A stretch of DNA of 52,581 bases from Chiloscyllium plagiosum (lineage: Eukaryota): contig NC_057719.1 of NCBI RefSeq assembly GCF_004010195.1, positions 32,303,153-32,355,733 on the forward strand, in the 5' to 3' direction. How positions within the stretch are numbered: the stretch's first letter is position 1; the number at the start of each line of letters is the position of its first letter. The translations under genes and the position numbers were made by a program. Below the pieces are notes generated by a model. The model saw nothing but the letters and a program-made list of their open reading frames with translations. It was not told where the DNA came from and made no database searches. Below are positions 353-36,655 of the stretch, piece after piece.

Positions 353-1561
353 TTACCTCAGGGAGATTGCTGTGTCTTCCCCAGTGAACACAGCTCTGAA
401 GTTCCCATTTAATTCCTCTGCCATTTCTTTGTTCCTAGTAATATATTCCTCTGTTTCTGTCTTCAAGGGCCCAATTTTTGTCCTAACCATTTTTTTGCCT
501 TCCACATACCTAAAAGAGCTTTTACTATCCTCCTTAATATTCTTGGCCAGTTTACCTTCGTACCTCATTTTTCCTCTGCGTATTTCCTTCTTAGTAATCC
601 TCTGTTGCTCTTTAAAAGCTTCCCAGTCCTCAGTTTTCCCACTTATCTTAGCTATGTTATACTTTTTCTCTTTTAACTTTATATGTTTCTTAACTTCCCT
701 CGTCAGCCATGGCCACCCACGCCTCCTCCTAGGATCTTTCTTCCTTTTTGGAATGAACTGATCCTGCATCTTCTGCATTATACACAGAAATATCCGCCAT
801 TGTTCCTCCACTGTCATCCCTGCTAAGGTATTGCACCATTGAACTTTGGCCAGCTCCTCCCTCATAGCTCCATAGTTCCCTTTATTCAACAGAAATGTTG
901 TCACTTTCGATTGTATTCTCTCCCTCTCAAATTGCATATTGAAGCTTATTGTGTTATGGTCACTACTTCCCAATGGCTCCTTCACTTCGAGGTCCCTGAT
1001 CAATTCTGGTTCATTGCACAATACCAGATCCAGAATTGCCTTCTCCCTAGTAGGCTCCGGCACCGGCTGTTCTAAGAATCCATCTCGGAGGCACTCCATA
1101 AAGTCTCTTTCTTGAGGTCCAATACTATCCTGATTCTCCCAGTCTACCTGCATGTTGAAATCCCCCATAACAACTGTAGTAACATCTTTGCGACAGGCCA
1201 GTTTCAGCTCCTGATTCAACTTACCTCCGACATCCAGACTACTGTTTGGGGGCCTGTAGATAACTCCCAAGAGGGTTCTGCTTTTCAGCCTTCTTCCTAG
1301 TTCTCCGAAGTCCCGCTGTAGTATGTTCCTCCTCTTCTTCCCGACATCATTTGTGCCGACATGTACCACCACCTCTGGCTCTTCACCCTCGTCCTTGAGG
1401 ATTTCCTGCACTCTGTCTGTGATGTCTTTCACCCTGGCACCAGGAAGGCAACACACCATCCTTAAGTCCCGCCTGCTGCCACAAAAACCCCGGTCAGTTC
1501 CTCTCACTATGGAGTCCCCTATCACCACAGCTCTGTGCGATGTCTGACTCCTCACACTCAC
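353..1561 (-). CDS. Chimeric CR1 ORF: ORF1 esterase fragment fused in frame to ORF2 endonuclease C-half and linker (402 aa)
   Basis: Junction reads LKSRT|LLGVIYRPP near 1274, whereas the CR1 copy at 35515-35820 continues LKSRTSRIVFSGLL. The start codon is GTG, so translation is not established. Confidence 0.6.
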   Translation of the reverse strand: MSVRSQTSHRAVVIGDSIVRGTDRGFCGSRRDLRMVCCLPGARVKDITDRVQEILKDEGEEPEVVVHVGTNDVGKKRRNILQRDFGELGRRLKSRTLLGVIYRPPNSSLDVGGKLNQELKLACRKDVTTVVMGDFNMQVDWENQDSIGPQERDFMECLRDGFLEQPVPEPTREKAILDLVLCNEPELIRDLEVKEPLGSSDHNTISFNMQFERERIQSKVTTFLLNKGNYGAMREELAKVQWCNTLAGMTVEEQWRIFLCIMQKMQDQFIPKRKKDPRRRRGWPWLTREVKKHIKLKEKKYNIAKISGKTEDWEAFKEQQRITKKEIRRGKMRYEGKLAKNIKEDSKSSFRYVEGKKMVRTKIGPLKTETEEYITRNKEMAEELNGNFRAVFTGEDTAISLR

Positions 1562-1750: not shown

Positions 1751-2068
1751 GTTGCACTCAATAACTCTTTTAAGAAACCCGAAATCCCACCTGCTTTGCT
1801 GCTAATAATTTTCTTAGTGTCCTGCAATCTTCAACAATAAGAATGATCAAGAATCAATGTGATCATATCTGGAGGCACAAAACCCTTCACATCAATGCCC
1901 ATCCCCCGTCAAACCCTGAACTTACATTTGCCAAGGGTTTGTTTGTCACCAGGTTACTGATAGTTGATTTGGCTAGACTCTGCAGACCCTAGTGTATTGA
2001 AATGAAGGTTAGGAATTAAAATGATTCAGGACTCCTACTGAACAACTGAACCAGTGTTGTAGAAAATT

Positions 2069-4047
2069 CTATTCATAATTCTCAATAATTTTAAAAATAG
2101 TTATGGAAGAGGATAAGCCTTTCATAAAAGTTAAAGCTCTTAATTGAAGTAAGGCAAATTTTAATGGTATGAGATAATAACTTTCAAAAGTTGATTGGAA
2201 TAGACTGTTTGCGGGTAAAAAAAAATGACTGACAAGTGGTAGGTTTTTGAAAGTGTGATCATGAGAGTTCAGAGGCATTATGTTCTTGTTATAGTGAAAG
2301 GTAAGGCTGGTAGGTTTTGGGAACAATGGATGGATAAAGGTATTGAGGTTCTAGTCAAGAATAATAAATAATCACATATTAGATATAGACAACTGGGATC
2401 AAATTAATTTCTTGAAAATTATAAAGAGTGTAGGGGCATTCTTAAGAGGGAAATCAGGAAGGCAAAGAGGGGATTTGAAATAGTCTTGACAGGTAAAGTT
2501 AAGGATAATCCCAAGAGATTCCATGAGTACAATAAGAGCACAAGAGCAACTAGAGAGAGATTGGGCCTCTCAGACATCAATGTGGTCCTGTTCATGTTGA
2601 AACTCAAGAGCTGGGAGAGATATTCAATGAATATTTTGTGTCAGTTTTTATTGTGGAAAATAAATGGAGGCTTGAGAACCCTGGGAAATAAATACTGATG
2701 TTTAGAAAACAGGTCACATTACAGAACAGGATGTGCTGGAGGTCTTAGAAAACATAAAGGTGGATGTCTCCGGGAGCTGATCAAGTGCATCCCAAGATGT
2801 TGTGGGACATTAGGAAGGAAATTACAGCCCCTTAGCAGAAATATTTATGTCATCTATAACCATGGTGAGGTGCTGGAGGACAGGAGGGTGGCTAATGTTG
2901 CACCTTTATTTAAGAAATGTTCTAAGGAGAAGGCTGGGAAATATTGACCTGTGAGTCTAACATTTGGTGGTGGGTAAATCATTGGAGGGGATTCTAAAAG
3001 GTAGAATTTACATGCATTTGGAGAGGCAAGGAATGATTAAGGATAGGTGGGGATTAGTTTAGTGGTGGCATGGTTTTATGCAAGGGAAATTGTGTCTCAC
3101 AAACTTAATTGAGTTTTTTGAGGAAGTAGACAAAAGGATTGACGAGGGCAGAGTGGTAGCAGTTATTTACTTGGACTTTAGTGAAGCCTTTGACAAGGTT
3201 CCACATAATAGACTAATTAGTAAAATTAGATCACATGGGATTCAGGGTGACCTCGCCAATTGGATATAAAATTGGCTAGATAATAAGCAACAGAGGATGC
3301 TGGTGGAGGGTTGTTTGTCAGACTGGAGGCCTGTGATCTGCAGTGTTCCACAGGGATCAGTGCTGAGTACTCTTTTGTTTCTCATTTGCATAAATGTTTT
3401 GGATTAGAATTTGGTTACTAAGTTTGCATATGACACTGAGGTTGGTGGTATTGTGGTCTGTGAAGAAGGCCATCTAAGAAAGAAGACATCTTGATCAATT
3501 GAGTCAATGGACTGAGGAATGGCAGGAGTTTACTTTGGATAAATGTGAGATTTTGTGTTTTTATAAAATAAACAAGGGCAGGACTTGTACAACTAAATGG
3601 TAGGGACCTGGGTAGTGTTGTAGAACAGAGATCTAATGGTTCAAGCACATAATTCCTTAAAATTTGTATCACAGGTAGATAGGATGGTTAAGAAGGCATT
3701 TAGCATGCTTGCCTTCATTGCTCAGAGTCTTGAGTATAGGAGTTGTCTTGTCATGTTGAGGTCACACAGGATATTGGTGAGGCCTCTTCTGGAGTACTTT
3801 GTGCAGTTCTGGTTGTCCTGTTATAGGAAGGATATTATTAAACTGCAGAAGGTTCAGGAAAGACTTAGCAGGATGTTGCCAGGAATGGAGGGTTTGAGTT
3901 ATAAAAATAGGCTAGAACATCTTTCACTGGAGTATGAGGTTAAGGAGTGACCTTATAGAGGTTTATAAAATCATAAGGGGTATAGACAAGGTGACTAGCA
4001 AAGGTCTTTTCTCCCCCCAAGGTGGGGCGTTCAACACTAGGGTACAT
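2069..4047 (+). mobile_element. Degenerate CR1 LINE ORF2 fragment (linker and RT), 3' end missing
   Basis: ORF pieces CLTNLIEFFEEV/YLDFSEAFDKVPH (3078-3269) and LVRPLLEYFVQFW (3636-3950). Similarity stops at actagggtacatgg (~4047), before the usual CR1 3'UTR. Confidence 0.92.
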
Positions 4048-4378
4048 GGGGATGTGACTACAGATTTTAATGGTTGTTGGTCTCTGACCGGTGCCTGTGT
4101 AGTCACCTTTGTAATCGTTTCTACGTATTTTATCAATTGCAAAGTTGGTCGAACCTCCACGTGGTTCCTCCCGGAAACTACCTGTAAGAGGAAGCTCCAA
4201 ACAGGTGTGGTTTTACTTGTGTAGAGGTTATATTAGCATGGTTTTATCATTAGCTTTATCACTAATTTTACCTTTGGTTTTACCTTTGGTTTTAACCAAT
4301 GCTGTATGCCACTGACCGTTTTACTATTTCCTTCTGTTGTAAGAGCATTTACTCTGATCAGGTCGGCCAATACGACCA
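4048..4378 (+). ncRNA. HDV-like self-cleaving ribozyme at the R2 5' end
   Basis: P2 TGGTCGA (4146-4152) pairs with T(A)CGACCA (4371-4378). P3 ACC/GGT encloses L3 TCCACGT (4153-4165). P1 3' strand TCCTCCC (4166-4172), P1.1 GG (4173-4174). P4 base ACCTG..AGAG (4180-4190) pairs with CTCT..CAGGT (4352-4363). J4/2 is GCCAA with the putative catalytic C at 4367. The P1 5' strand near 4048-4055 pairs only partly. Confidence 0.8.
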
Positions 4379-4839
4379 GAGAAAAGATACGAGACGGCTG
4401 GTGACCACTTGGTCGATGATAGAAACCTAGTTTTGGAAGGGGCGATTATGTCTAACTCCAAAATTTTCCGGTTGGGTGGGAGACCGGGAAAATAACCGCC
4501 CCGCACGGTTGTTATTGGCGGCACTGTGTGCTAAGTGTTAGCCAAACATGGACTAGACCATCCATTTCAACACAAATGGAAGAGACCCTAAGAGTTACTC
4601 CGGCATGGCTGCCCTCTGGTAGGCACGAGGAAGCCAATAAGAAAGTCCAGAGTAATCAGGACCAAATTCGAATGGAAGGACTTAGAGAAGGCCCCTCTAG
4701 AGTCCTGGTTCGTTTAACAGCCGGACAATTTCTAATTTGATTTTAGTCAAATTGGAGAACTAGAGAGCAACAAGGAGAGGAGTGAGAGTAGGATTATTCA
4801 TCTGGTTATTAATGAAGAAGAAAAATTGGAGGAGATGAT

Positions 4840-7800
4840 AGAATACCTGTTAGACAATTTTGTGTAAATTTTGTAACAATTTATAATACTATGGGAATGT
4901 TTAGGAAACATCTAAAATTATGTAAAGGGATTAAAACGATAAGAATTAAATGTGGCTGGGAAGATTATTATTATTATTATTATTAAAATTTACAACACGA
5001 AAGGCACGTGCATCCCAATTTGAGAAACTTTAAGAGGAAAAAAGAGAATAAAGAAAATAAAGATCTCTCGGATAAAGGAGAGAAAGGTAAAAGAGGTATA
5101 TGGTCTAATTCTGAAATTAAAATGTTACAACAATTAGAATTGGAATTGAGGTTGTAAAAATATCAATAAAACTTATTGCGGAAAAATTGGAAACTAAAAT
5201 AGCAAAACAGATTTCCGATAAAAGGAGATTGTTAACTTTATCGTGACTCTTACTATGTTTATTTATGGGCATAAGTCAGGAAGTGGTCCTTTGTAGTAAT
5301 AAAAGTGAGAGTAGTAATCTGGATATAGATACAGTAATAGAGGAGATAGGAACTGGTGAGCGTAATCGCCAAGGTAATAATATTAATAGGTCACTAACAG
5401 AATTAGTAGAGATAATAGAGGATAAAATAAGTAAGAGTAAACGTATAATGAAGGACTACGATAGCATCATGGATATGATAGTTCGTAAATTAGAGAATAA
5501 TAATGAGAATAATAAGAAACAAGTAGTTACTGAGCAGAAGGTTAGTGGACAAGAATGTAGTAAGAAGGTAAATAACGCGAAGAGAAGATACAGTCAAAAA
5601 AGAAAGTTCAAAGAAGTCCAGGTTTTATATAAAAATAAAAGGCAATATTTAGCTAGAACCTTGATGGGGGCTCTGGCTAAGTGTGAATGCCTGCTCAGAA
5701 AGGAATTAGAGGAATATTTTAGAGATTATCTAACTCTAACGATAAAAGTAATCTAAAGAGGCTTTGCTAAATACAGAGGTCAGATTGAGGGATCAATATG
5801 CGACATACTGACTAGTCCTATAACGGTAGACATAAATCAGGCCGTGAAGGCGATGGATGTTAAAACTGTGGCGGGACCAGATTGGATGACGCTGAAAGAA
5901 ATAATTAGAATATTTAACAAAGATAATATGAGAATTCCTAAAATATTTACCATTTGGGTAAAAACAGGTAAAATCCCGGATAAACTTAAAATAAGTAGAA
6001 CCGTGTTGATTCCCAAAGTAAGTGATGAGGATGGATTAAAAGATATCAATAACTGGAGACCAATCACAATAGGTCCAATTATGCTTAGGCTGTTTACAAA
6101 AATTATAGCCAATAGATTAAGTAGTTATAAATTTAAATAAAAGGCAAAAAGGTTTTATGGCAGGTGTGGCAGGGTGTGAAGAAAACATTAAAATCCTGGA
6201 GAATATCATGAATGCAGCTAAGAAGAATAAAATTGATCTAGCAGTGGTACTCTTAGACCTGGCGAAAGCCTTTGATATTGTAGGACATAAATTAATAATA
6301 AATGCCCTTCGAAGAATTCAGCTCCCCCAACATTTATTAAATTAATTACAAATTTGTATGAAAATAATTTTACTCAGATTAAAGGTTTTAATTGTAAAAC
6401 TGATAAGATTAAAATTTTAAGAGGGGTTAAACAAGGTGATGCGTTATCACCAATTCTTTTTAATATAGTTATAGACCCCCTTATAACCACTATTGAAGAA
6501 GGAAAAAGAGGATTATTTTTAGGTCAAGATAAAGAGAGCAATCATTGTGCAACTCTAGCATTTGCTGATGGTATAGCTTTAATTAGCCAATCCTACGATG
6601 GAATGGCATACAATTTAAAACTAGTTGAGAAATTTTGTAGTAATACGGGGATGGAGGTCAATATAAGAAAAACAAAAGGGTTCTACTTTACTTATAAAAA
6701 CAAAACGTTTTTATATATAATGACAAGGCAAATTGGAAATTTAATAAGGGAAACATGCAATTCATAGATCCAGGAAGTACTGATAAATATTTAGGAGCAA
6801 AGATAGACCCATGGATTGGTGTACGCCAATCAGATTGGGAAAACCAACTAGGTATATAGATTGAAAATCTTAAAAGATCCCTTTTAAAACCTGTTCAGAA
6901 ATTGGAACTTTTAAAAATTTATTTTATCCCTAGATGATATTATCTAATTTTATCAGAGGTATCATTAAACTATCTTAATAAACTTGATAACATAATTAAA
7001 AATGCAATTAAAGAAATATTACATCTCCCATAATCCATCACGGATGGCTATTATATACAAAGTCCCAGGATGGCAGCCTTGCGTTGAACAGACTGTCAAC
7101 ACTTATTCCAGTTGCAATTTTGAGGAAATATGAGATGCTATACAAATCCGAGGATGAAATCTTACATGCCTCATTTTCATTCGAGGGTGGTATATAGCTA
7201 CGAAAATGCACAAGCTCAGTAAATTCAAAGTATTAGAAAATATCTGGAATCCAAATAGAAATCGACAGTTGGGAGAATCTGATATTATTGAGGAAGAGAA
7301 CGAGAGAGTAGAAGAATTTAGCAATAAGAACTATGCTAACTGGAGATCCATGGAACTTCAGCAATGGATGGCCTTGCCCTGTCAAGGGGCTGGTACCCAT
7401 TATTTTAAGAATGATGATATCTCTAATAACTGGTTGATGAAAATACAACACATGAAGATGTCCAAAGTAATAAATCCAATTTTATTACGAACGAATTTTT
7501 ATCCAACATGGGCGTCGCTAGTGTATGGAAGGCCTTTTAATATCAGGAGTTGTCGGAGATGTAATGATAATTCTGAAACATTGCGCATATCGCAGGATGG
7601 TGTCCCTATGTTAAAAATGAGGATAAAAAGATACAATAGAGTAAGGGAAGAGCTAACAAAGTTTATCAAGATAAAAGGATGGATAATATACATGGAACCA
7701 CGTATTAAAGATAATACCGGGAAATTATGGATATCGGACTTAACCTGATTTTCCTTTTTAAAAATTATCGTGGATGATGGGGTGATCAGAACGGATTAAC

Positions 7801-8115
7801 AAATTAACTCGCTCAAACAAGCCTGGGAAGGAAAGAAAGATCAATATAAACATCTGGAAAAGTAAATAATGGACCTTTCAAAAGGAACTAAAATATCCTT
7901 TTTATGGTTTTGTGATGGGATCTCAAAGAAAATGGTTTGGAAAGAACAATGAACTAATGAAAGACCTTGGGATAGAAAGATTTAAATCTCTTGCTCAGAA
8001 CATTGCAAACCTTGTTTTATCTTTGACTCTTGAGCTTTTAAGGATTTTTATGGACTCTTGGGATTCTCCAGTTGACAAAATTAATAACTTTTTAATTTTG
8101 TTTGTTTTTAAATAA
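4840..8115 (+). pseudogene. Frameshifted R2 polyprotein (ZF-Myb-RT-RLE)
   Basis: Collinear ORF fragments 5265-5756, 5844-6140, 6157-6345, 6354-6767, 7206-7748 and 7912-8115. The catalytic FADD reads FADG, and there are several stops and frameshifts. Confidence 0.88.
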
Positions 8116-9258
8116 AGTTTTAGGTTAATTTAAATTAGCATTGATTTTAACTATATATTAAAATTTTAATGTTTTAAGTGCCATTTTGTGACTAGTCACA
8201 GACTCAGTTCTCGGCTTTCACATTGAGTTTCCTTTCACTTCATTTCTTGACAGTTCATTATTTCTCCTTCCCCCAAATGGACTGACAAGCCCCTCACTCA
8301 ACTTTTATTAACTCACTGACTTTTACATTCCCAAATCTTTCTAGTTTTGAACAGCCATCCAGAATGTTTCCTGCTCATGTAACTCTCCAATATGTCAGTC
8401 TCTCCATGGAAATGGTAATTGTCTCAAACCAGAGACAGTTGATGCTGCTCATGCCTTGGATGGACTCCCCCATTGTCCATAAATGACCAATGTCCAAGCA
8501 GTTCACTCTTCTCCTAGTGTCTGCTGATCATTTCAGTCTCACCAGCTATGTCAAGTTGAGCACTAATGGGCTGTTTCTCAGTTTTCTAACTGAGAATAGC
8601 CAGAAATATTAGTCTGCCTTTATTGACTGTACCTTTTATGCCATACTGACCAGCTAATGCTACCCTTTCTGACTATGAACTAATACCCACTCACATGCAA
8701 ATACCCGCAACCATGCACAGTGCACTGGAATGATGTGACGTTCTGCTGATGTAGTCCCAAACAGTTGCTTGGAACTCTTCTTCACCTCATTTGTGACATC
8801 ACCTTCAAGAAAGAAGATTGATATTGACATTGTGACCAACTCTCTCTGCTTCACCGTTCTTCTTGGAGCTCCCTCTGTTCACAACTAGTCACAGACACAT
8901 CAGAACTGTTCATGGATACTTGCATGAAGTAACACTCTGCCCCCACGTCACCCTTAGCTGCAGGCTAACATGATGAAACTCCTCTCACCTGCAGTGCCCC
9001 CATCTCTTTTGATGATCAATACAGTTAGCAAAGGCAATCTTCCTGCAGCTCATCTCGGCCTTCTGGCATTTACAAACGTCTTTCTTCAAAGTACAGAAAT
9101 ACCACTGCTCTCTAAAGGTCCAGTCACATTTCCCTGTTCCAGTTCAAGATCTAGCATTGTCACTGGGAGGCTCTAGCTGTGAGTGCCATTTTGTATTTGT
9201 AATGCAGCACACATCCCTGACTGGGCTAGGGCCTCCTTTGTGAGTCTACAAATGTGTC

Positions 9259-10527
9259 ATTAACCGCCTCAACCTGTCTACCTCCCTTCCCTACTCAACC
9301 TCTCACCCTCACAATGCACAGCCCTCCAATCCCTCTGCTCCAATCCCAACCTCACCATTAAGCCAGCGGATAAAGGGGGCACAGTGGTAGTCTGGCGCAC
9401 TGACCTCTACACCACTGAAGCCAAACGTCAACTCAAGGATACCTCTTCCTACTGCCCCCTCGACCATGACCCCACCCCCCATCACCAAACCATCATCTCC
9501 CANNNNNNNNNNNNNNNNNNNNNNNNNNNNNNNNNNNNNNNNNNNNNNNNNNNNNNNNNNNNNNNNNNNNNNNNNNNNNNNNNNNNNNNNNNNNNNNNNN
9601 NNNNNNNNNNNNNNNNNNNNNNNNNNNNNNNNNNNNNNNNNNNNNNNNNNNNNNNNNNNNNNNNNNNNNNNNNNNNNNNNNNNNNNNNNNNNNNNNNNNN
9701 NNNNNNNNNNNNNNNNNNNNNNNNNNNNNNNNNNNNNNNNNNNNNNNNNNNNNNNNNNNNNNNNNNNNNNNNNNNNNNNNNNNNNNNNNNNNNNNNNNNN
9801 NNNNNNNNNNNNNNNNNNNNNNNNNNNNNNNNNNNNNNNNNNNNNNNNNNNNNNNNNNNNNNNNNNNNNNNNNNNNNNNNNNNNNNNNNNNNNNNNNNNN
9901 NNNNNNNNNNNNNNNNNNNNNNNNNNNNNNNNNNNNNNNNNNNNNNNNNNNNNNNNNNNNNNNNNNNNNNNNNNNNNNNNNNNNNNNNNNNNNNNNNNNN
10001 NNNNNNNNNNNNNNNNNNNNNNNNNNNNNNNNNNNNNNNNNNNNNNNNNNNNNNNNNNNNNNNNNNNNNNNNNNNNNNNNNNNNNNNNNNNNNNNNNNNN
10101 NNNNNNNNNNNNNNNNNNNNNNNNNNNNNNNNNNNNNNNNNNNNNNNNNNNNNNNNNNNNNNNNNNNNNNNNNNNNNNNNNNNNNNNNNNNNNNNNNNNN
10201 NNNNNNNNNNNNNNNNNNNNNNNNNNNNNNNNNNNNNNNNNNNNNNNNNNNNNNNNNNNNNNNNNNNNNNNNNTACCTGCCTATCTCCTTTTCCACCTAT
10301 CCACTCCACCCTCTCCTCCCTGACCTATCACCTTCATCCCCTCCCCCACTTACCCATTGTACTCTATGCTACTTTCTCCCCACTCCCACCCTCCTCTAGC
10401 TTATCTCTCCATGCTTCAGGCTCACTGCCTTTATTCCTGATGAAGGGCTTTTGCCTGAAATGTCGGTTTCGAAGCTCTTTGGATACTGCCTGAACTGCTG
10501 TGCTCTTCCAGCACCACTAATCCAGAA
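9259..10527 (+). mobile_element. Penelope-like element spanning an assembly gap
   Basis: LTIKPADKGGTVVVWRTDLY (PLE RT N-terminus) left of the gap. Right of it lie a C-rich 3'UTR and a hammerhead-like cctgatgaagggcttttgcctgaaatgtc at ~10437-10465. Confidence 0.85.
9503..10273. other. Assembly gap (N run)
   Basis: Run of N. Confidence 1.
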
Positions 10528-11057: not shown

Positions 11058-14000
11058 CATAGAACATAGGACATTACAGCACAGTACAGGCCCTTTGGTT
11101 CTCGATGTTGCACTGACTTGTGAAATTAATCTGATGTCCATCTAACCTACACCATTCCATTATTATCCATATGTATGTCCGATGCCCATTTAAATGCCCT
11201 TAACGTCAGCGAGTCTACTACTGTTGCAGGCAGGCTATTTCACACCCCTAATACCCTGAGTAAAAAAAGACTACCCAATCTGTCCTAAATCTATCACCCC
11301 TCAATTTAAAGCTGTCTCCTCCTGTTAGCCTTCACCATCTGATGAACAAGGCTGTGTCCACCCTATCTAACTCTTATTCGTTTTGAGTAAGTCACGTCTT
11401 AACCTTCTTCTCTCCAACGAAAACAGCTTCAGTTCCCTTCGCCTTTCCTTGAGCCCTTTCCTCCTCCATACCAGGCAACATCCTAGTAAATCCCTTTGAA
11501 CGCTTTCCAAAACTTCCACATCCTTCCTAGAAGGCAGTGACCAGAATTGCACGCAATGCTCCAGGAATGGCCTTACCAGAGTCTTGTACAGCTGAAGCAT
11601 GACCTTGTGGCTCCAAAACTCAATTCCCCTACCAATAAATGCCAACACACATGCCTTCTTAATAACCCTATCAACCTGGGTGGCAGCTTTCAGGGATTTA
11701 TGCACCTGGACAGAGATCTCTCTGTTCATCTACACTGCCAAGAATTTCACCATCAGCCAGTACTCCGCATTCCTGTCACTACTTCCGAAGTGAACTACCT
11801 CACACTTTTCCGCATTAAAGTCTATTTGACACTTCTCAGCCCAGCTCTGCATCTTCCCTATGTCCCTTTGTAACCCACAATATCCTTCAGCACGGTTCAC
11901 AAACCTTCCTACCTACATGTCATCTGCAAATTTACTAACCCATCCTTCTACACCTACAACGAGATAATTTATAAAAATGACAAACCGCAGTGGCCTCAAA
12001 ACCAGATCCTTGTGGCATTCCACTGGTAACTAAGCTCCAGGATGAACATTTCCCGTAAACCAACACCCTCTGACATCTTTAAGCTAGCCAATTTCTAATC
12101 CAAACTGCTAAATCACCTTCAATCCCAGTGACTAGAGTAAGATTAGGGCCATTCAAAGATGGTGGTGGAAAGTTGTGTGGAATCTGAGGATATAGGGGAA
12201 ATGCTTAATTTTCCAATGTGAATACTGATGAAAAGTAATGTGAGTGAGAATACAGATACAGGCTACAAGATTAGATGGGATTGAGGTTGACAAACAGGAG
12301 GTTTTAGCAATTTTGAAAAATCTGAAAATAGGTAAGACCCTGTGGCTGGATGGATTCATCCTCAGATTCTCTGGGAAGCCAGGGAGGAGATTGTGAGCCT
12401 TTGGCTTCAATCTTTGTCAGCATTAACTCCTTCAATAAACCATGGGTCCCTCTCTCGACAACTACCTCCATGCCTGATAGGCATATACTTATCAAGGTGA
12501 TAGCTGTTTCTTGAAATGTGGAGCTTATTCAAGGATGTCCATCCCCTGCAGTTTCCTTCCCCATTCTATACATCCTAAATCTTGCCTAATCACATCATAA
12601 TTGCCTTTTCCCCCCATTATACTTTGTCCCTGCAGTATATACCTATCCCTGCCCATTGCTATCGTAAACATAACTGAATTATGGTCACTAATGCCAAAGT
12701 ACTCATCAACCTCCAAATCTAACACCTGGCCAGGTTCATTCCCTAGTACCAAATCCAATATGGCATCGCCCCTTGTTGGCCTATCTACATAATGTGTCAG
12801 ATAACCCTCCTGTTATACTGAACAAAAACTGACCCTTCTAAATTACTTGAACTATAGTATTATGAGTCAATGTTGGGGAAGTTAAAGTCTCCCATAACCT
12901 ACACTGTTACTCTTGCTCCTATTGAGAATCATCTTTGCTATCCTTTCCTCTACATCCCTGGAATGATTCAGAGGCCCATAGAAAACTCCCAACAGGGTGA
13001 CCTCTCCTTTCCTGTTTCTAACCTCAGCCCAAACTACCTCAATGGATGAGTCCTCAAAGGTTATCTCGCTGCTGTAATGCTACCCTTGATTAACAATGCC
13101 ACACGCCCACCTCTTTTACCATCTTCTCTGCTCTTGCTGAAACATTTAAATTCCAGAATCTGCAACAACCATTCCCATCCCTCCTCCAGCCATGTCTCTG
13201 AAATTGCCACAACATTGAAATCCCAGGTACCAACCCATGCTGCAAGTTCACCCACCTTATTCTGGATGCTCCTGGCATTGAAGTACACACATTTCAAACC
13301 AACATCCTGATTGCTGGTGCCTGCTTGCGACCTTGTAATCCTATCCCTGACCTCACTACACTCAGCTTCCTGTGCACTGGAACTACAATTCAAGTTCCCA
13401 TCCCCTGCTGTATTAGTTTAAACCTCCCTGAAAAGCATTAGCAAATTCCTCCTCCCAGGATATTGGTACCACTCTGGTTCAGGTGAAGACCATCCTGTTT
13501 GTAGGGGTCCCACTTTCCCCAGAAAGAGCTTCAATTATCCAAGAATCCAAAACACTCCCTCTGCACCATCCCTGCAGCCACGTATTCAGCTCCACGCTCT
13601 CCCTTTTCCTCGCTTAACTAGCACATGGCACGGGCAACAAATCAGAGATAACAATCCTGTTGGTTCTAGCTCTAACTTTCCCCTCTAGCTCCCTGAATTT
13701 CTGCCTTAGATCCCCACCTGTCTTCCTACCTGTGTCATTGGTGCCTATGTGGACCATGACTTGGAGCTGCTCCCCTCCCCCTCAAGGATCTGGAAAACAT
13801 GATCAGACATCACGAATCCTGGCACCGGGGAGGCAACTACCAACCATAAGTCTCTCTCATTCCCACAAAAACTTCTATCTGTCCCCCTAACTCTGGAGTC
13901 CCCAGTGACTAAAGATCTGCTCCTTTTCCCCCTTCCCCTCTGAGAACCAGGGACAGACTCTGCGCCAGAGACCTGTTCCCCATTGCATACCCTGGTAAGT

Positions 14001-14660: not shown

Positions 14661-15917
14661 GAAATTTAGTTAAAAATCACACAACACCAGGTTATAGTCC
14701 AACAGGTTTAATTGGAAGCACACTAGCTTTTGGAGCGACGCTCCTTCATCAGGTGATAGTGGAGGGCTCGATCGTAACAGAATTTATAGCAAACATTTAC
14801 AGTGTGATGTAACTGAAGTTATACATTGAAAAATTGATTGTCTGTTAAGCCTTTCACCTGTTAGATTACAGTGATAGTTTCACTTCTTTCATGTGTAAAT
14901 CATGCAACCTTTTTTAAAAGTTGCATTCTCGGGTTAGCTGTTAACAATGGTAATAGCGAGACAATATGTTGAAGGTGTTGGCCCCCTGTGTTCTCTGTCT
15001 ATGCCATGATGTTTAGATTGATTCTAAAGGTACACAAAGCCGACACACTGGGACGTCCCATCGTGTCGGGCAATGGGACCCTATGTGAGAATCTCTGCGG
15101 CTATGTGGAAGGCATCTTGAAACCTAGTGTACAGGGGATCTCCAGCTTCTATCTCGACACTATTGATTTCTTACAAAAACTCAGCACCCACGGATCAGTC
15201 AAACCGGAACATTCCTCGTCACAATGGACATTTCCGCACTCTACACCATCATCTGTACTTCAGTACTCAACACCAACAACTGCCAATCTCCAAACACCAT
15301 CCTACAACTCATCCGCTTTATCCTCGATCACAACGTCTTCACCTTTGACAACCAGTTCTTCATCCAGAAACATGGAACAGCCATGTTTGCACCCCAATAT
15401 GCCAATATTTTTATGCACAGGTTCGAACAAGACTCCTTCTCTATGCAGGATCTCCATCCAACATTATACACCAGGTACATTGACAACATTTTCTTCCTCT
15501 GGACTCATGGTGAGGATAAAACTACACAGTGACATCAAGTTTCATTCCACCATCAAATTCACCATGGACTACTCAACGGTCTGTCTCATTCTTGGCCACA
15601 TGCATATCCAGCAAGGATGGACACCTCAGCACCACAGTCTACCGCAAACCCACAGACAACCTAACAATACTACACTTCTCCAGCTTCCACCCAAAACATA
15701 TTAAAACAGCCATTCCCTATGGACAAGCCCTACGCATACAGAAGCTGTTCAGATGAGGAGGAACGTGATGGACACCTGGAAGTACTCAAGGATGCCCTCA
15801 TGAATGGGGTACGATGCTCAACTCATCAACCGCCAGTTCCGACATGCCACAGCAAGGCACCGTAATGACCTCCTCAGGAGACAGACACGTGCTGCAACTG
15901 ACAGGGTACCCTTCGTG

Positions 15918-16092
15918 GTAAAAATAATGACTGCAGATGCTGGAAACCAGATTTTGGATCAGTGGTGCTGGAAGAGCATAGCAATTCAGGCAGCATCCGA
16001 CGAGCAGCAAAATCGACGTTTCGGGCAAAAGCCCTTCATCAGGAATAAAGGCAGAGAGCCTGAAGCGTGGAGAGATAAGCTAGAGGAGTGTG
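15918..16092 (-). mobile_element. 3' end of a second PLE family nested in the PLE above, running into the gap
   Basis: Interrupts the host frame after RVPFV. Nearly identical to 52431-52581 and to the reverse complement of ~10395-10527. Confidence 0.88.
16011..16046 (-). ncRNA. Minimal hammerhead ribozyme motif
   Basis: Minus strand CUGAUGA-A-GGGC-UUUU-GCCC-GAAAC-GUC with an intact core. Confidence 0.8.
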
Positions 16093-16681
16093 NNNNNNNN
16101 NNNNNNNNNNNNNNNNNNNNNNNNNNNNNNNNNNNNNNNNNNNNNNNNNNNNNNNNNNNNNNNNNNNNNNNNNNNNNNNNNNNNNNNNNNNNNNNNNNNN
16201 NNNNNNNNNNNNNNNNNNNNNNNNNNNNNNNNNNNNNNNNNNNNNNNNNNNNNNNNNNNNNNNNNNNNNNNNNNNNNNNNNNNNNNNNNNNNNNNNNNNN
16301 NNNNNNNNNNNNNNNNNNNNNNNNNNNNNNNNNNNNNNNNNNNNNNNNNNNNNNNNNNNNNNNNNNNNNNNNNNNNNNNNNNNNNNNNNNNNNNNNNNNN
16401 NNNNNNNNNNNNNNNNNNNNNNNNNNNNNNNNNNNNNNNNNNNNNNNNNNNNNNNNNNNNNNNNNNNNNNNNNNNNNNNNNNNNNNNNNNNNNNNNNNNN
16501 NNNNNNNNNNNNNNNNNNNNNNNNNNNNNNNNNNNNNNNNNNNNNNNNNNNNNNNNNNNNNNNNNNNNNNNNNNNNNNNNNNNNNNNNNNNNNNNNNNNN
16601 NNNNNNNNNNNNNNNNNNNNNNNNNNNNNNNNNNNNNNNNNNNNNNNNNNNNNNNNNNNNNNNNNNNNNNNNNNNNNNNNN
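16093..16681. other. Assembly gap (N run)
   Basis: Run of N. Confidence 1.
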
Positions 16682-17244
16682 TGCAACACATTATCAATGA
16701 GGATGAGCACCTCACCAAGACCTTCCCCACACCTCCACTACTTGCCTTTAAACAACCGCCAAACCTCAAACAGATCATTGTTCATAGCAAACTGCCCGGC
16801 TCTCAGGACAACTCCATACAACCCTGTCATGATGGACACTGCAAGATGTGTCAGAGTGGACATAGATACCATTATTACGTGTGGGAACACCTCCCACCTT
16901 GTACATGGCAAGTACTCATGTGACTCAGCCAACGTTGTCTATCTTATACGTTGCAGGCAAGGATGCCTGGAGGCATGGTACATTGGGGAAAGGCTACGAC
17001 AACGGATGAACGGGCATCGCACAACAATCAACAGACAGGAGGGTTCCCTCCCAGTTGAGGAACACTTCAGTGGTCCAGGACATTCAGCCTCGGACCTTCG
17101 GGTGACCATCCCCTCAGGTGGACTTCGGGACAGGCAGCAGAGAAAAGTGGCCGAGCAGAGGCTAATAGCTAAGTTCGGTACCCATAGGGAGGGCCTCAAC
17201 CAGGACCTTGGGTTCATGTCACATTACAGGTGATCACCATTGCA

Positions 17245-32389: not shown

Positions 32390-35300
32390 ATAGAACATAG
32401 ACCATATAAAAGTACAGCGCAGTACAGGCCCTCTGGCTCACAATGTTGTGCTGAGAATTAATCTTAATGTAAAATAAAATAACCAAACCTACACTCCCCT
32501 CCCTTCAATTCATTGCTGTCCATGTTCATATCCAGCAGTTGCTGAAATGTCCCTAATGACTCTGCTTCCACCACTACCACTGGCAATGCATTCCATGCTC
32601 TCACAACTCTCTGCGTAAAGAACCTACTTCTGAAGTCTCCTCTATACCTTCCTCAAAATTATGACTCCTTGTGGCTGTCAATCCTGCCCTGGGGAAAAGA
32701 CTTTGGCTATCAACTCTATCTATGCATCTCATTACCTTGTATACCTCTTCTTCCTCCTCCAGAGAGAAAAGTCTGAGCTCAGTCAACCTCTCCTCGTAAA
32801 ACAAGCCCTCCAGTTCAGGCAGCATCCTGGTAAGCCTCCTTTGTGCCCTCTCCAACGTTTCCACATCTTTCCTAAAATAAGGCGACCAGAACTGGACACA
32901 ATATTCCAAATGTGGTCTCAACAGGGTTTTGTAGAGCTGTAGCAAAACCTCGCAGCTCTTAAACTCGATTTCCCCTGTTAATGAAAGCTAAAACACCATA
33001 TGTTTTCTCAACAACCCTACCCACTTGGGTGACAACTTTGAGGGATATATGCACTTAAACACCAAAATCCTGCTGTTCCTCCACACTGCCAAGAATCCTG
33101 TCTTTAATCCTATATCAACATTCAAGTTTGACTTTCCAAAACACATCACTTCTCATTTATCCAGGTTGAACTCCATCTGCTATTTCTCAGCCCAGCTCTG
33201 TTGATGTCGCACTGCAGCCTGCAATAGCCCTCAATACTATCAAATGCATCTCCAACCTTTGTGTCATTGGCAAACTTACTAAACAACCCCTCAATCTCCT
33301 CATCCAAGTCATTTATAAAAACTACAAAGAGCAGAGGCTGAAGAACAGAGCCCTGCAGGATGCCACTCACCACTGACCTCCAGGTAGAATACTTTCCAAC
33401 TACAACCACTCTCTGCCTTCTGTCAGCCAACCAATTCAGAATCCAGAGAGCCAAATCTCCCTGTATCCCATACCTCCTGACTTTGTGAATGAGCCTACTA
33501 TGGGGAGGCTTATCAAATGCCTTACTGAAGCCCATGTACACCACATCCACTGCTTGACCTTTGTCAACCTGTCTCATTACCTCCTCAAAGAACTCAATAA
33601 GATTTGTGAGGCATGACCTGCCCTCACAAAGCCATGCTGACTGCCTTTAATCATGCTATGCTTTTCCAAATAGTCACAAATCTTATCCCTCAGAATTTTT
33701 TCCCAAACCTTGCTGACAACAGACATTAGACTGACTGGTGTGTTCTTGCCAGGGATTTCCTTATTCTCCTGGTTGAAAAGAGGAACAACATTCGCCTCCG
33801 TCCAATCTTCCGGTACGACTCCCGTGGAGAGTGAGGAAGCAAAGATCTTGCTCGCAACTTAATAACCTTCTTTTTTCACTTGCTGGAGCAATTGAGGATA
33901 AATCTGGTCTGGCCCTGGGGATTTATCAATCTTAATCTTAATGTTTGCCAAAACTTCCTGCACATTAACTTCCTCAATCTCGATCTGTTCAAGCCTGTTT
34001 CTTGGCTCCTCAAAGTTCTCATTCACACAAGACCCCTTTCCTTAGTACAAACTGAAGCAAAAAACTCACTTAGGGCTTCCACATCTGCTCAGACTCCATG
34101 CACAAGTTCCTTATGCTATCCTTGACCGGCCCTATCTCCTTCCTTATTATTCTCTTATTCTTCACTTGTCAGTAAAGTGGCTTTGGGTTCTCCATAATTC
34201 TTCCTGCCAAGCCTTTCTTGTGCCCCCTCCTGGCTCTCCTCAGTCCATTTTTGAGCTCCTTCTTAATAAGCCTGTAATCCTCTAAAGCTGTGCTAGACCC
34301 TTGCTTCCTCCACTTTACGTACGCTGCCTTCTTCCTTTTTGATAAGCTCCTCTGTTCTCGTCATCCAAGGCTCTTTAATCTTACCCCATCTTGTCTGTCT
34401 CAGAGGAACAAATTTGTGCATAACTTGCAACAACTTAAACAATCTCCACATGTCTGTTGCGCCCTTTCTGGGCAACAATTACTTCCCAACTCCTGTCTGA
34501 TAGCGTCATAACTTCCGATTCCCCAATTAAATATTTTCCCATGGTAACTGCTCGTTTCCCTCTCCATGACTATGGTAAATGTGAGGCAGTTGTGGTGACT
34601 GTCACCAACGTGTTCTCCCACCGTGAGATCTGACACCTAACCTGGCTCATTGCCAAGCACCAAATTCAAAATGGCCTCTCCCCTTGTCATCCTGTCTACA
34701 TACTGAGTAAGGAAATCCTCCTGAACACACCAGACAAAAATGGGTCCCTCCAAACCATCTGCACTGAGGAGGTTCCAATCAATATTGGGAAAGTTGAAGT
34801 CACTCCTAACAACAACCCTGCTATATCTGCACCTTTCCCAAATCTGCCAGCCTATGAGTTCTTTGATCTCCCTACTGCTATTAGGAGTCTGTAGAAGATA
34901 CCCGATGAGGTAACTGCTCCTTTGCTGTTCCTAACTTCCACCCATACTGATTCAGTAGACAAATCTTCCTCGACAACCTTCATTTCTGTAGCTGTGATGC
35001 ACTCTCTAATTAGCAATGCTACCACACCCCACTTTTTTACCCGCCCCCCCTCACCCTGTTCTTTTTAAATGTTCTAAACCCTGGAACATCTAGCAACCAT
35101 TCCTGCCCCGTGAAATCCATATCTCCGTTATGGCCACAACATCAAAGTCCCAAATACTGGTCCATGCTCTAAGTTCGTCACTCTTCTTTCTGACACTCCT
35201 TGCGTTAAAGCAGACATACTTTAACCGATCCCTTTGTTCATTGCGTGAGAAACCTTCCTGATAGATTCACTACATCCTGTCTCTGCCTCATCTACAACTA

Positions 35301-36655
35301 CCTCCTCTGCCTCAGATGTGTAGCTCTGGTTCCCACCCCACTGCCAAACTAGTTTAAACCCTCCCAAACCACACGAGCAAATCTCCCACCCAGGACATTT
35401 GTGCCCCTCCAGTTCAGGTGCAACCCGTCCTTCATGTACAGGTCCCACCTTCCCCAGAAGGCATCCCAAAGGTTTAAGTATCTAAAGCCCTCCCTTCTGC
35501 ACTTGCTGCCTGTCTCATGGCACCAGTAGCAAACCTGAGAACACTATTCTACTCGTCCTACTCTTCAGCTTCCATCCTAACTTTCTGTAGTCACTTTTCA
35601 GATCCTCAATCCCTTTCCTGGCTATATCAGTGGTGGCAATATGTACCACGATTTCTGGCTGCTCACCCTTTCCCTTCAGAATCTTGTGAACCCGATTGGC
35701 AACTACCCGGACCCTGGCACCAGGGAGGCAACATACCTTCCAGGAGTTCCGTTCCTGACCACAATCTTCTGTCATTCCGTGTATTGGGTCTCCTGCCGCT
35801 AGCGCTTTTCTATTTTCCACCCCCCACCCACCCCTTCCCTTCTAAGCCTCAGTGCCAGAGACCTGACAACTATGGCTTTTCCTGAAGAAGGGCTTATGCC
35901 CGAAACGTCGATTCTCCTGTTCCCTGGATGCTGCCTGACCTGCTGCGCTTTTCCAGCAACACATTTCCAACTATGAACTATGGCTTTTCCCTGGTAGGAT
36001 GTCCCCACAAGCAGTATCCAAACTGGTATACTTATTGCTGATGGAAACAGCCACAGGGGATCCCTGCTCTGACCGTCCGTTCCCTTTCCTCTCCCTGACA
36101 GTAACCCAGTCGTCCTTATTCTAGGCCTGAGGAGTGACCACCTCCCTCTACATCCTCTCAATATCCCCTTCTGCCTCCTGGATGATCTGTAGTTCAGCCA
36201 GCTCCAGCTCCAGTTCCCTAACTTGGTTTTTGAGGAGTTTGGGTTGGGTGCTCTTCCTGCAGATGTGGCCTGTAGAGATATGTGTTGTGTCTCTCACCTG
36301 CCACATTCTACAGGAGGAACATGCTACTGCCCTAACAGCCATACCCTGATAATCTGAAAACCCACACAGGACTAAACAAGGAAGAGAAAAAAATAAGAGA
36401 ACCTGAAAAACTTACCGAGTCTACAGACTCTTATTAAGGTTAGAGGAGGCCCATGGTGTAGGGTCTCGGGTTTAGATTGCACTCAATTAGAAAAGAATCA
36501 CTTACCTTCCCAGCAGGCTCTGCTTCTTCTACTCTCTGTTCCTGTTGCCTGAACTCAAAAAGGCCACTGGCGCGTGAAAGTGGGTCCCTTTGTAGAAACT
36601 CTTACCTTCCCAACAGGATCTGCATCTTCCGCTCTCTGCCCTCTGCCCGAACCCA
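32390..36655 (-). mobile_element. Full-length degenerate CR1 LINE (5'UTR, ORF1 zinc finger and esterase, EN, RT, tail)
   Basis: MAVRAVACSSCRMW..ICRKS (36148-36342), CCLPGARV..VVHIATTD (35515-35820), DSHHN (34400-34636), FSKAFDK..QGSVLQPLLF..FANDTK (33146-33577), LYKTLLRPHLEYCVQFWSP (32601-32945), tagaacatag tail. Confidence 0.95.
35883..35975 (+). mobile_element. 93 bp PLE-derived hammerhead-bearing insertion in CR1 ORF1
   Basis: Perfect 15 bp TSD AACTATGGCTTTTCC (35868-35882, 35976-35990); core CUGAAGA-A-GGGC-UUAU-GCCC-GAAAC-GUC at 35882-35909. Confidence 0.9.

Follow-up and report, generated by a model that had tools for sequence, protein, structure and literature searches.

The question raised by this locus is whether the helices between positions 4146 and 4378 of the window (the whole stretch of 52,581 nt of Chiloscyllium plagiosum DNA analysed here) form a true HDV-like ribozyme with an unusually long P4, to what element they belong, and whether the site can still cut. 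The motif is confirmed: it is an HDV-like ribozyme and belongs to a dead R2 retrotransposon of lineage A, sited in a LINE outside the rDNA. The reading preferred here, at a probability of roughly 0.8, is a fossil 5' HDV-like ribozyme from a lineage-A R2 family with its own P1 and a long, zipped P4, the window copy being an off-target insertion that probably does not cleave.

Each part of the ribozyme (P2, P3, L3, the P1 3' strand, P1.1, P4, and J4/2) lies where the original prediction had placed it (Table 1), but the feature is larger than first called: it begins at 4048 and takes in two J1/2 hairpins. The parts follow the HDV-like nested double-pseudoknot order P1-P2-P3-L3-P1'-P1.1-P4-J4/2-P2'. 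The CC of L3 pairs with the GG to form P1.1 (95% paired among copies), and in J4/2 a C is followed by an A. The J4/2 C, retained in 43 of 44 copies, is C4367 here, and its position suggests a catalytic role.

Table 1. Features of the R2 copy, its ribozyme and its host LINE (window positions)
Feature	Position	Strand	Remarks
Host LINE, decayed	2040..4047, start approximate	+	Translation shows broken RT motifs; other LINE copies share homology with the flank
P1 5' register	4046..4052	+	Element-derived part 4048-4052 (GGGGA) only; intact siblings G6A
Dead R2 (lineage A) copy	4048..8176	+	Lacks 2 nt at the 5' end and ~290 nt of 3' UTR
Putative element head: decayed captured copy of 28S -28..-1 leader	4048..4073	+	Six sibling heads align to the leader; window head not among the six
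J1/2 hairpin 1	4054..4106 (4054-4063 with 4095-4106)	+	97% of cells paired; two-sided change in 2/10 pairs
J1/2 hairpin 2	4108..4143 (4108-4116 with 4135-4143)	+	95% paired; two-sided change in 3/9 pairs
P2 5' strand	4146..4152	+	Distal pair A-U in 31 copies, U-A in 11
P3 and L3	4153..4165	+	P3 4153-4155/4163-4165; L3 UCCACGU 4156-4162
P1 3' strand and P1.1 GG	4166..4174	+	UCCUCCC 4166-4172 here, UCCCCCY in family; GG 4173-4174
Long P4	4175..4366, 192 nt	+	Six stacked helices, U-rich tip; base helix 4178-4184 with 4359-4365
Degenerate 12-nt tandem repeats, P4 tip	4242..4294	+	Array extends from the perfect part, 4266-4294, to 4242
J4/2 and P2 3' strand	4366..4378	+	GCCAA with putative catalytic C4367; P2 3' strand 4371-4378, bulged A4372
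Motif 3' of P2	4389..4398	+	Present as well in the second R2 family and in lineage-A R2s of other sharks, partly by eye in Table S2 rows (PMC13188248)
Broken R2 ORF	4448..8061, end approximate	+	Three zinc fingers, Myb, RT, restriction-like endonuclease

A relaxed HDV descriptor allowing a P4 of ~260 nt, composed with the motif already known, matched the 4146-4378 site and no other on either strand of the window, and had no match in 200 block-shuffled windows. At gathering thresholds, Rfam had no match in the window, nor in eight sibling loci except to LSU rRNA. This miss is probably not class-defining, since the models seem not to accommodate such insertions, and the suggestion that the long P4 would defeat motif searches is plausible.

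The fold was examined in the 44 copies (from 53 distinct cores, with tandem and duplicated copies included) that have both a head and the P2 3' strand. The structure combined P4 helices from RNAalifold with pairs set by hand; run on the whole alignment, RNAalifold mis-paired J1/2 hairpin 1 and gave no pseudoknots. In the 77-pair fold (14 helices), 92.9% of 3321 cells are paired, against 28-44% in slid controls, and 21 pairs show two-sided change, a result matched by none of 500 shuffles; these covariation counts are inflated by the shared ancestry of the copies, and the same alignment had supplied part of P4. Covariation in P2, P3, and P4 had been proposed as the check: P2 and P4 do covary; P3 is conserved but, like P1 and P1.1, has no two-sided change within the family. 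The motif's identification as an R2-type HDV-like ribozyme is borne out.

Among the 40 of 152 candidates scored in a DNA search of the genome (3.56 Gb), copies are 74-92% identical and mostly begin at window position 4048; the majority of sibling matches begin there and continue beyond 8176 to a shared end. Compared with a sibling open frame, the window ORF falls into seven segments with changing frames and 16 stops, with an RVT_1 domain match at 6291-6764. Sibling open frames of 1196, 1130, and 1062 aa carry three zinc fingers, Myb, RT, and an endonuclease motif, and the single-ORF R2 domain arrangement is found in siblings L081-L084 and L087, the window ORF being broken. Zinc-finger and Myb Pfam scores are under the cut-off in siblings; the motifs nevertheless align to R2Tg. 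The best PDB match of the 1196-aa frame is R2Tg (9dou, E 5.6e-187), with 8gh6, which we take to be R2Bm, at E 1.3e-65. With three N-terminal zinc fingers and a predicted protein nearer R2Tg than R2Bm, the family is assigned to R2 lineage A. Some individual copies have peculiarities of their own: the first zinc finger of L081 (protein residues 168-188) is CCHC, lineage A being described with CCHH; L110:1408-2345 is a ~940-nt internally deleted copy, the only one seen, with its 5' 380 nt joined to its 3' 500 nt; and in L095:1-3711 the 3' end of a long-P4 copy directly adjoins the ORF of a more distant R2.

At the family level, insertion into 28S is canonical: LSU rRNA flanks both ends of four copies (L078, L079, L084, and L090; eight loci scanned), and the genome has 22 exact R2-28S 3' junctions. 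These insertions and junctions rule out membership in R2NS, which has no 28S insertion. The window copy itself is flanked by LINE, with no rRNA within the window, and is an off-target insertion near the 3' region of its host, presumably a CR1-type LINE. Elsewhere in the window, a 402-aa open frame at 356-1561 (- strand) belongs to another LINE; its Pfam matches are of endonuclease type and, weakly, GDSL-like, and homologous pieces lie at 12528-13918 and 34082-35808. Stop-free frames are clustered on both strands at 9264-10493 and 15804-17233, in very AT-rich bins (GC 0.20-0.25); these regions are absent from a tandem-repeat scan at score 80, and are possibly low-complexity or masked sequence.

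The family's P1 differs from expectation. A need for the true 28S leader had been supposed, but the P1 5' strand of the family is an element-encoded G6A, at -12.6 kcal/mol vs. -8.4 kcal/mol with the 28S leader; P1 duplexes in intact copies range from -12.6 to -14.3 kcal/mol. Heads with exactly six G's, which match the 7-nt P1' UCCCCCY, are the commonest class (17/46, or 14/35 once duplicates are collapsed), and those with five to seven G's make up only 24/46. A P1 of 6-7 bp starting with a G at the cleavage site is found in the family, with 7/7 pairs in 18 of 44 copies; the first pair is G-U in 18 copies and G-C in six. Since this strand is element-encoded, cleavage is predicted at the element's own end, and the modal G6 5' end may be taken as indirect support for Mg2+-dependent self-cleavage by the family.

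As to its origin, in six siblings the opening 28 nt can be aligned with 28S -28..-1 (shuffle p 0.0004-0.005), and the P1 5' strand would open a decayed, captured version of this leader that carries a compensatory swap. Such a duplication-plus-compensation route has been modelled, and sea squirt R2 B and C provide a precedent (PMC3774820; this and the other PMC articles are cited from portions of their text). A second lineage-A R2 family in the same genome (L199-L212 and L217) has a P1' of CCCGCC type, which retains a G pairing with the true 28S leader. Five of its copies outside rDNA (L200, L201, L208, L209, and L211) start with the true 28S -28 leader; L199, L207, and L209 carry repeated leader fragments. 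By eye, G-run heads are present in a stingray R2 from a different lineage too (table in PMC13188248), so the self-contained P1 is not unique.

The P4 is indeed unusually long: from GG to C it measures 192 nt here and 164-206 nt over the 44 copies, vs. 29 nt in six of the eight second-family cores found among 22 loci. It is a single hairpin, long and interrupted, with a 12-nt periodicity at its tip. The tandem repeat first noticed there is real (a 12-mer, 2.4 copies at 100%), and autocorrelation peaks at 12 across copies. Taken alone, P4 has 35 pairs, 94.1% paired, 15 of them with two-sided change (0/500 shuffles). Folded alone, the window P4 is no better than shuffles (z -1.25), and five siblings have z from -2.5 to -6.7. 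The length is most likely derived, because second-family P4s are short, as are those of four other chondrichthyan R2s (by eye; Table S2, PMC13188248). Two copies are oddities: L052 has a shorter P4 tip, its 3'UTR-to-head junction lying beside an N gap, and in L216, an old R2, P4 appears split by another insertion.

It is possible, if somewhat doubtful, that P4 is a positively useful module, serving R2 protein binding, translation initiation, or nuclease protection; this would be compatible with the rest of the preferred reading. Covariation reaches the tip through six helices, internal-loop motifs are strongly conserved, and the length is held within its range in subfamilies ~30% diverged, and at 174 nt in the more distant copy L213; roles of the R2 5' UTR in translation and protein binding have also been reported (PMC6765202; PMC12203849). 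Against this, tip length ranges over 27-69 nt, the second family makes do with its short P4, and P4 is described as “highly variable” and dispensable in other R2 ribozymes, in which J1/2 can reach >700 nt (PMC3774820).

The window copy is filed as a defective relic rather than a working ribozyme. Its P1 falls short of the 6-7 bp of the family: with four G's, G1 and G2 being missing, it forms 5/7 pairs (positions 1 and 2 unpaired) at -5.5 kcal/mol, and it has a private C-to-U change in the P1 3' strand (C4169>T). The original prediction that the core is better preserved than the ORF does not hold, private changes standing at 3/41 for the core and 240/3545 for the ORF (p = 0.76), with 14/188 in P4; pooling seven clade copies gives 11/257 vs. 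1272/23900 (p = 0.57), the core's small size limiting the power of both comparisons. Decay of this copy is neutral. As to expression, in four runs presumed to be RNA there was no raw read at ≥99% identity and there were no start peaks; contigs of related copies were present, and the runs speak neither for nor against it.

With such a P1, the further suggestion that the site might still cleave is not supported, and the copy probably does not cleave, or does so weakly. Residual cutting of read-through transcripts, via the 5-bp P1 or via an alternative P1 strand from host LINE positions 4021-4027, is quite unlikely. P2 (7/7), P3 (3/3), P1.1 (2/2), L3, and C4367 are all intact, the host LINE segment offers 6/7 P1 pairs, and an active R2 ribozyme with a 4-nt P1 has been reported (PMC3774820). 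Either P1 option, however, comes to only about -5.5 kcal/mol, far from the intact copies; loss of activity in a horseshoe crab R2 was linked to one P1 mismatch (PMC3774820); the private changes and poor z of P4 count against it, and the core shows no sign of selection.

How the copy came to lie in a LINE can be approached through its dispersed siblings. From 49 3' ends, 15 were set aside (five without tail match, seven tandem, three duplicate), leaving 34 distinct junctions. Of these, 28 join non-28S sequence, which begins with TAG in 17 cases (3.57/5 vs. a null of 2.50±0.13). This TAG may be target- or RNA-derived, as empty sites could be reconstructed for few LINE-hosted copies only. No target duplication >4 nt was found in 14/14 two-ended copies. 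Upstream recognition was assessed on 22 flanks (excluding seven 28S, nine tandem, five duplicate, and five short-head copies): the proximal 10 nt are above null (p = 0.003), -40..-19 gives p = 0.135, and -25..-19 gives p = 0.009 under best-offset anchoring but 0.07-0.55 under fixed offsets. R2Tg off-targets (~1%) share mainly the bases just after the nick (PMC11371274; PMC12222951), and by analogy the dispersal seen here is in keeping with off-target insertion as known for R2.

Seven of 12 junction loci have 55 to >1100 nt of downstream 28S and no upstream 28S, which points to rDNA co-transcripts as source RNAs. In L133, L135, L139, L140, L142, L146, and L151, the R2 end is followed by 55-529 nt of 28S and then by unrelated DNA without poly(A); short-tailed loci like these are candidate retrocopies of R2-28S read-through RNA, or rDNA fragments. 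On/off-target ratios are biased, because only four intact empty 28S targets are assembled and the assembly contains hardly any of the rDNA array. A tree built from 34 RT stretches (seven dropped for short coverage) shows numerous subfamilies with short tips, 28S copies being intermixed with dispersed ones.

Several kinds of multiplication and recurrence can be seen among the stray copies. One R2 copy (L178-L183, on C8 and unplaced) was multiplied at least 11 times within a multi-kilobase segmental duplication. Head-to-tail R2 tandems (L077:4250-9756; L019-L023, L026, L121, and L123) occur on small unplaced contigs only, with a period of ~4670 nt in C94519 and often a short head duplicate at the joint, an arrangement that fits template jumping. 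Four insertions of different subfamilies (L008, L011, L024, and L081) fall at roughly one position within a single host repeat bearing a loose resemblance to the 28S target. Insertion into the 3' region of LINEs, presumably CR1-type, is recurrent at TTTAAG/TAG-like sites (window 4020-4047, L002, L100, L025, and L029), three of these copies sharing the same sub-site.

That the family has escaped the rDNA, its self-contained ribozyme letting dispersed copies serve as sources, as in R2NS, is very unlikely. A flank-blind search puts 21 of 25 assembled copies outside the rDNA (11 of the 21 being one duplicated site); the window's 12-member tree clade has no 28S-labelled member, some “off” labels being provisional; the longest open frames (L081-L083) have non-28S 3' flanks; and head-to-tail tandems occur. 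However, dispersal is also seen in the second family, which depends on the 28S leader, and this rules out the self-contained P1 as the cause of escape. The 22 R2-28S 3' junctions, many with short 28S tails, also speak against it, as do the under-assembly of rDNA and the potential of extant element locations to mislead (PMC13580325). The sole shared non-rDNA 3' flank, in 11 copies, was considered as transduction from an off-rDNA master and rejected: kilobases are common to both sides (87-98%, six loci compared), as in a segmental duplication. As for a chance arrangement in a U-rich UTR with no true structure, it could draw on the lack of an Rfam match and the non-significance of the window P4 alone, but is contradicted by covariation, descriptor specificity, sibling P4 folding, and the modal G6 heads, and is extremely improbable.

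On the preferred reading of a fossil ribozyme in an off-target copy, active R2 elements in 28S rDNA would be co-transcribed with rRNA, the ribozyme cutting directly 5' of G1 of the element-encoded G6A. The P1 strand would stem from a duplication that placed the 28-nt 28S leader inside the element, with G-C replacing a C-G pair, as the homology of sibling heads to the leader suggests. P4 would have expanded from ~29 to ~190 nt, with slippage of 12-nt units as the probable mechanism, and compensatory changes, to which the covariation points, would have kept it zipped; the simplest reason would be that P1.1 and the catalytic C can meet only when P4 is closed. The window copy would go back to one such RNA that inserted off target in a LINE, lacking two G's at the 5' junction, and decayed neutrally. 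A more far-reaching proposal, which we consider unlikely, is that a vertebrate lineage-A R2 freed its ribozyme from rRNA by leader capture and built from 12-nt repeats a selected 190-nt P4 domain that binds R2 protein or drives cap-independent translation, letting some dispersed or tandem copies self-release from any read-through transcript.

The window copy itself has no apparent function. The family offers a natural example, with a control family in the same genome, of the proposed move of the R2 cut site from 28S -28 to the element's own 5' end, and shows the extent of P4 expansion compatible with continued pairing. In its dozens of stray copies, off-target insertion by R2 has left a natural record, relevant to gene-insertion work with lineage-A R2 proteins.

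The sequences of the family are already published as the bamboo shark elements R2-1_CPl and R2-1_CPu (Table S2, Hassan 2026, PMC13188248), which have the same core motif and, by eye, a long P4. R2-1_CPu has the same G6AT head at the 28S junction; PMC13188248 lists G6AT under “Upstream 28S,” and in the portion available does not treat the ribozyme, the word appearing in a reference only. Within the open literature searched, with subscription papers outside its scope, no description of this family's ribozyme was found, nor a paper joining bamboo shark with retrotransposon and rDNA, nor mention of a “long P4.” The long covarying P4 and the captured leader appear to be two derived traits undescribed for this family. 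Other chondrichthyan lineage-A R2s (R2-1_STig, SCa, HSa, and CMi) and the second family have the same protein lineage and core, but their P1' keeps a G pairing with 28S -26 and their P4 is short (29 nt in the second family, ~15-35 nt by eye in Table S2). The motif 3' of P2 is common to STig, SCa, and both families here, and its ten bases (4389-4398), conserved in both families, can be seen by eye in zebra shark and catshark R2s.

Like the R2 5' HDV-like ribozymes described by Eickbush (2013; PMC3774820), this one has a nested double pseudoknot with an L3/P1.1/J4/2 core at the R2 5' end, and a variable J1/2 and P4. Unlike those in the part of that article available, it has a P4 that measures ~190 nt, contains helices that covary and ends in a tip of 12-nt repeats, with no claim to be the longest. 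Sea squirt R2 B and C likewise cut inside a captured 28S duplication, and in Drosophila and tick R2s the cut falls at the end of the element; zebra finch R2, the vertebrate example, cuts at 28S -28, unlike the own-end site predicted here (PMC3774820).

The protein resembles zebra finch R2Tg (PDB 9dou) in its three zinc fingers, Myb, RT, and endonuclease, but its first zinc finger ends in C rather than H, and unlike in R2Tg the ribozyme has no need of 28S sequence. Off-targets of R2Tg similarly share mainly the 4-5 nt after the nick, and head-to-tail tandems have been reported for it (PMC11371274; PMC12222951). Copies are dispersed outside rDNA, as in R2NS-1_SMed and R2NS-1_CSi (Kojima 2016, PMC5035012); unlike these, the family is leaky rather than non-specific, since canonical 28S insertions and 28S-tailed copies persist.
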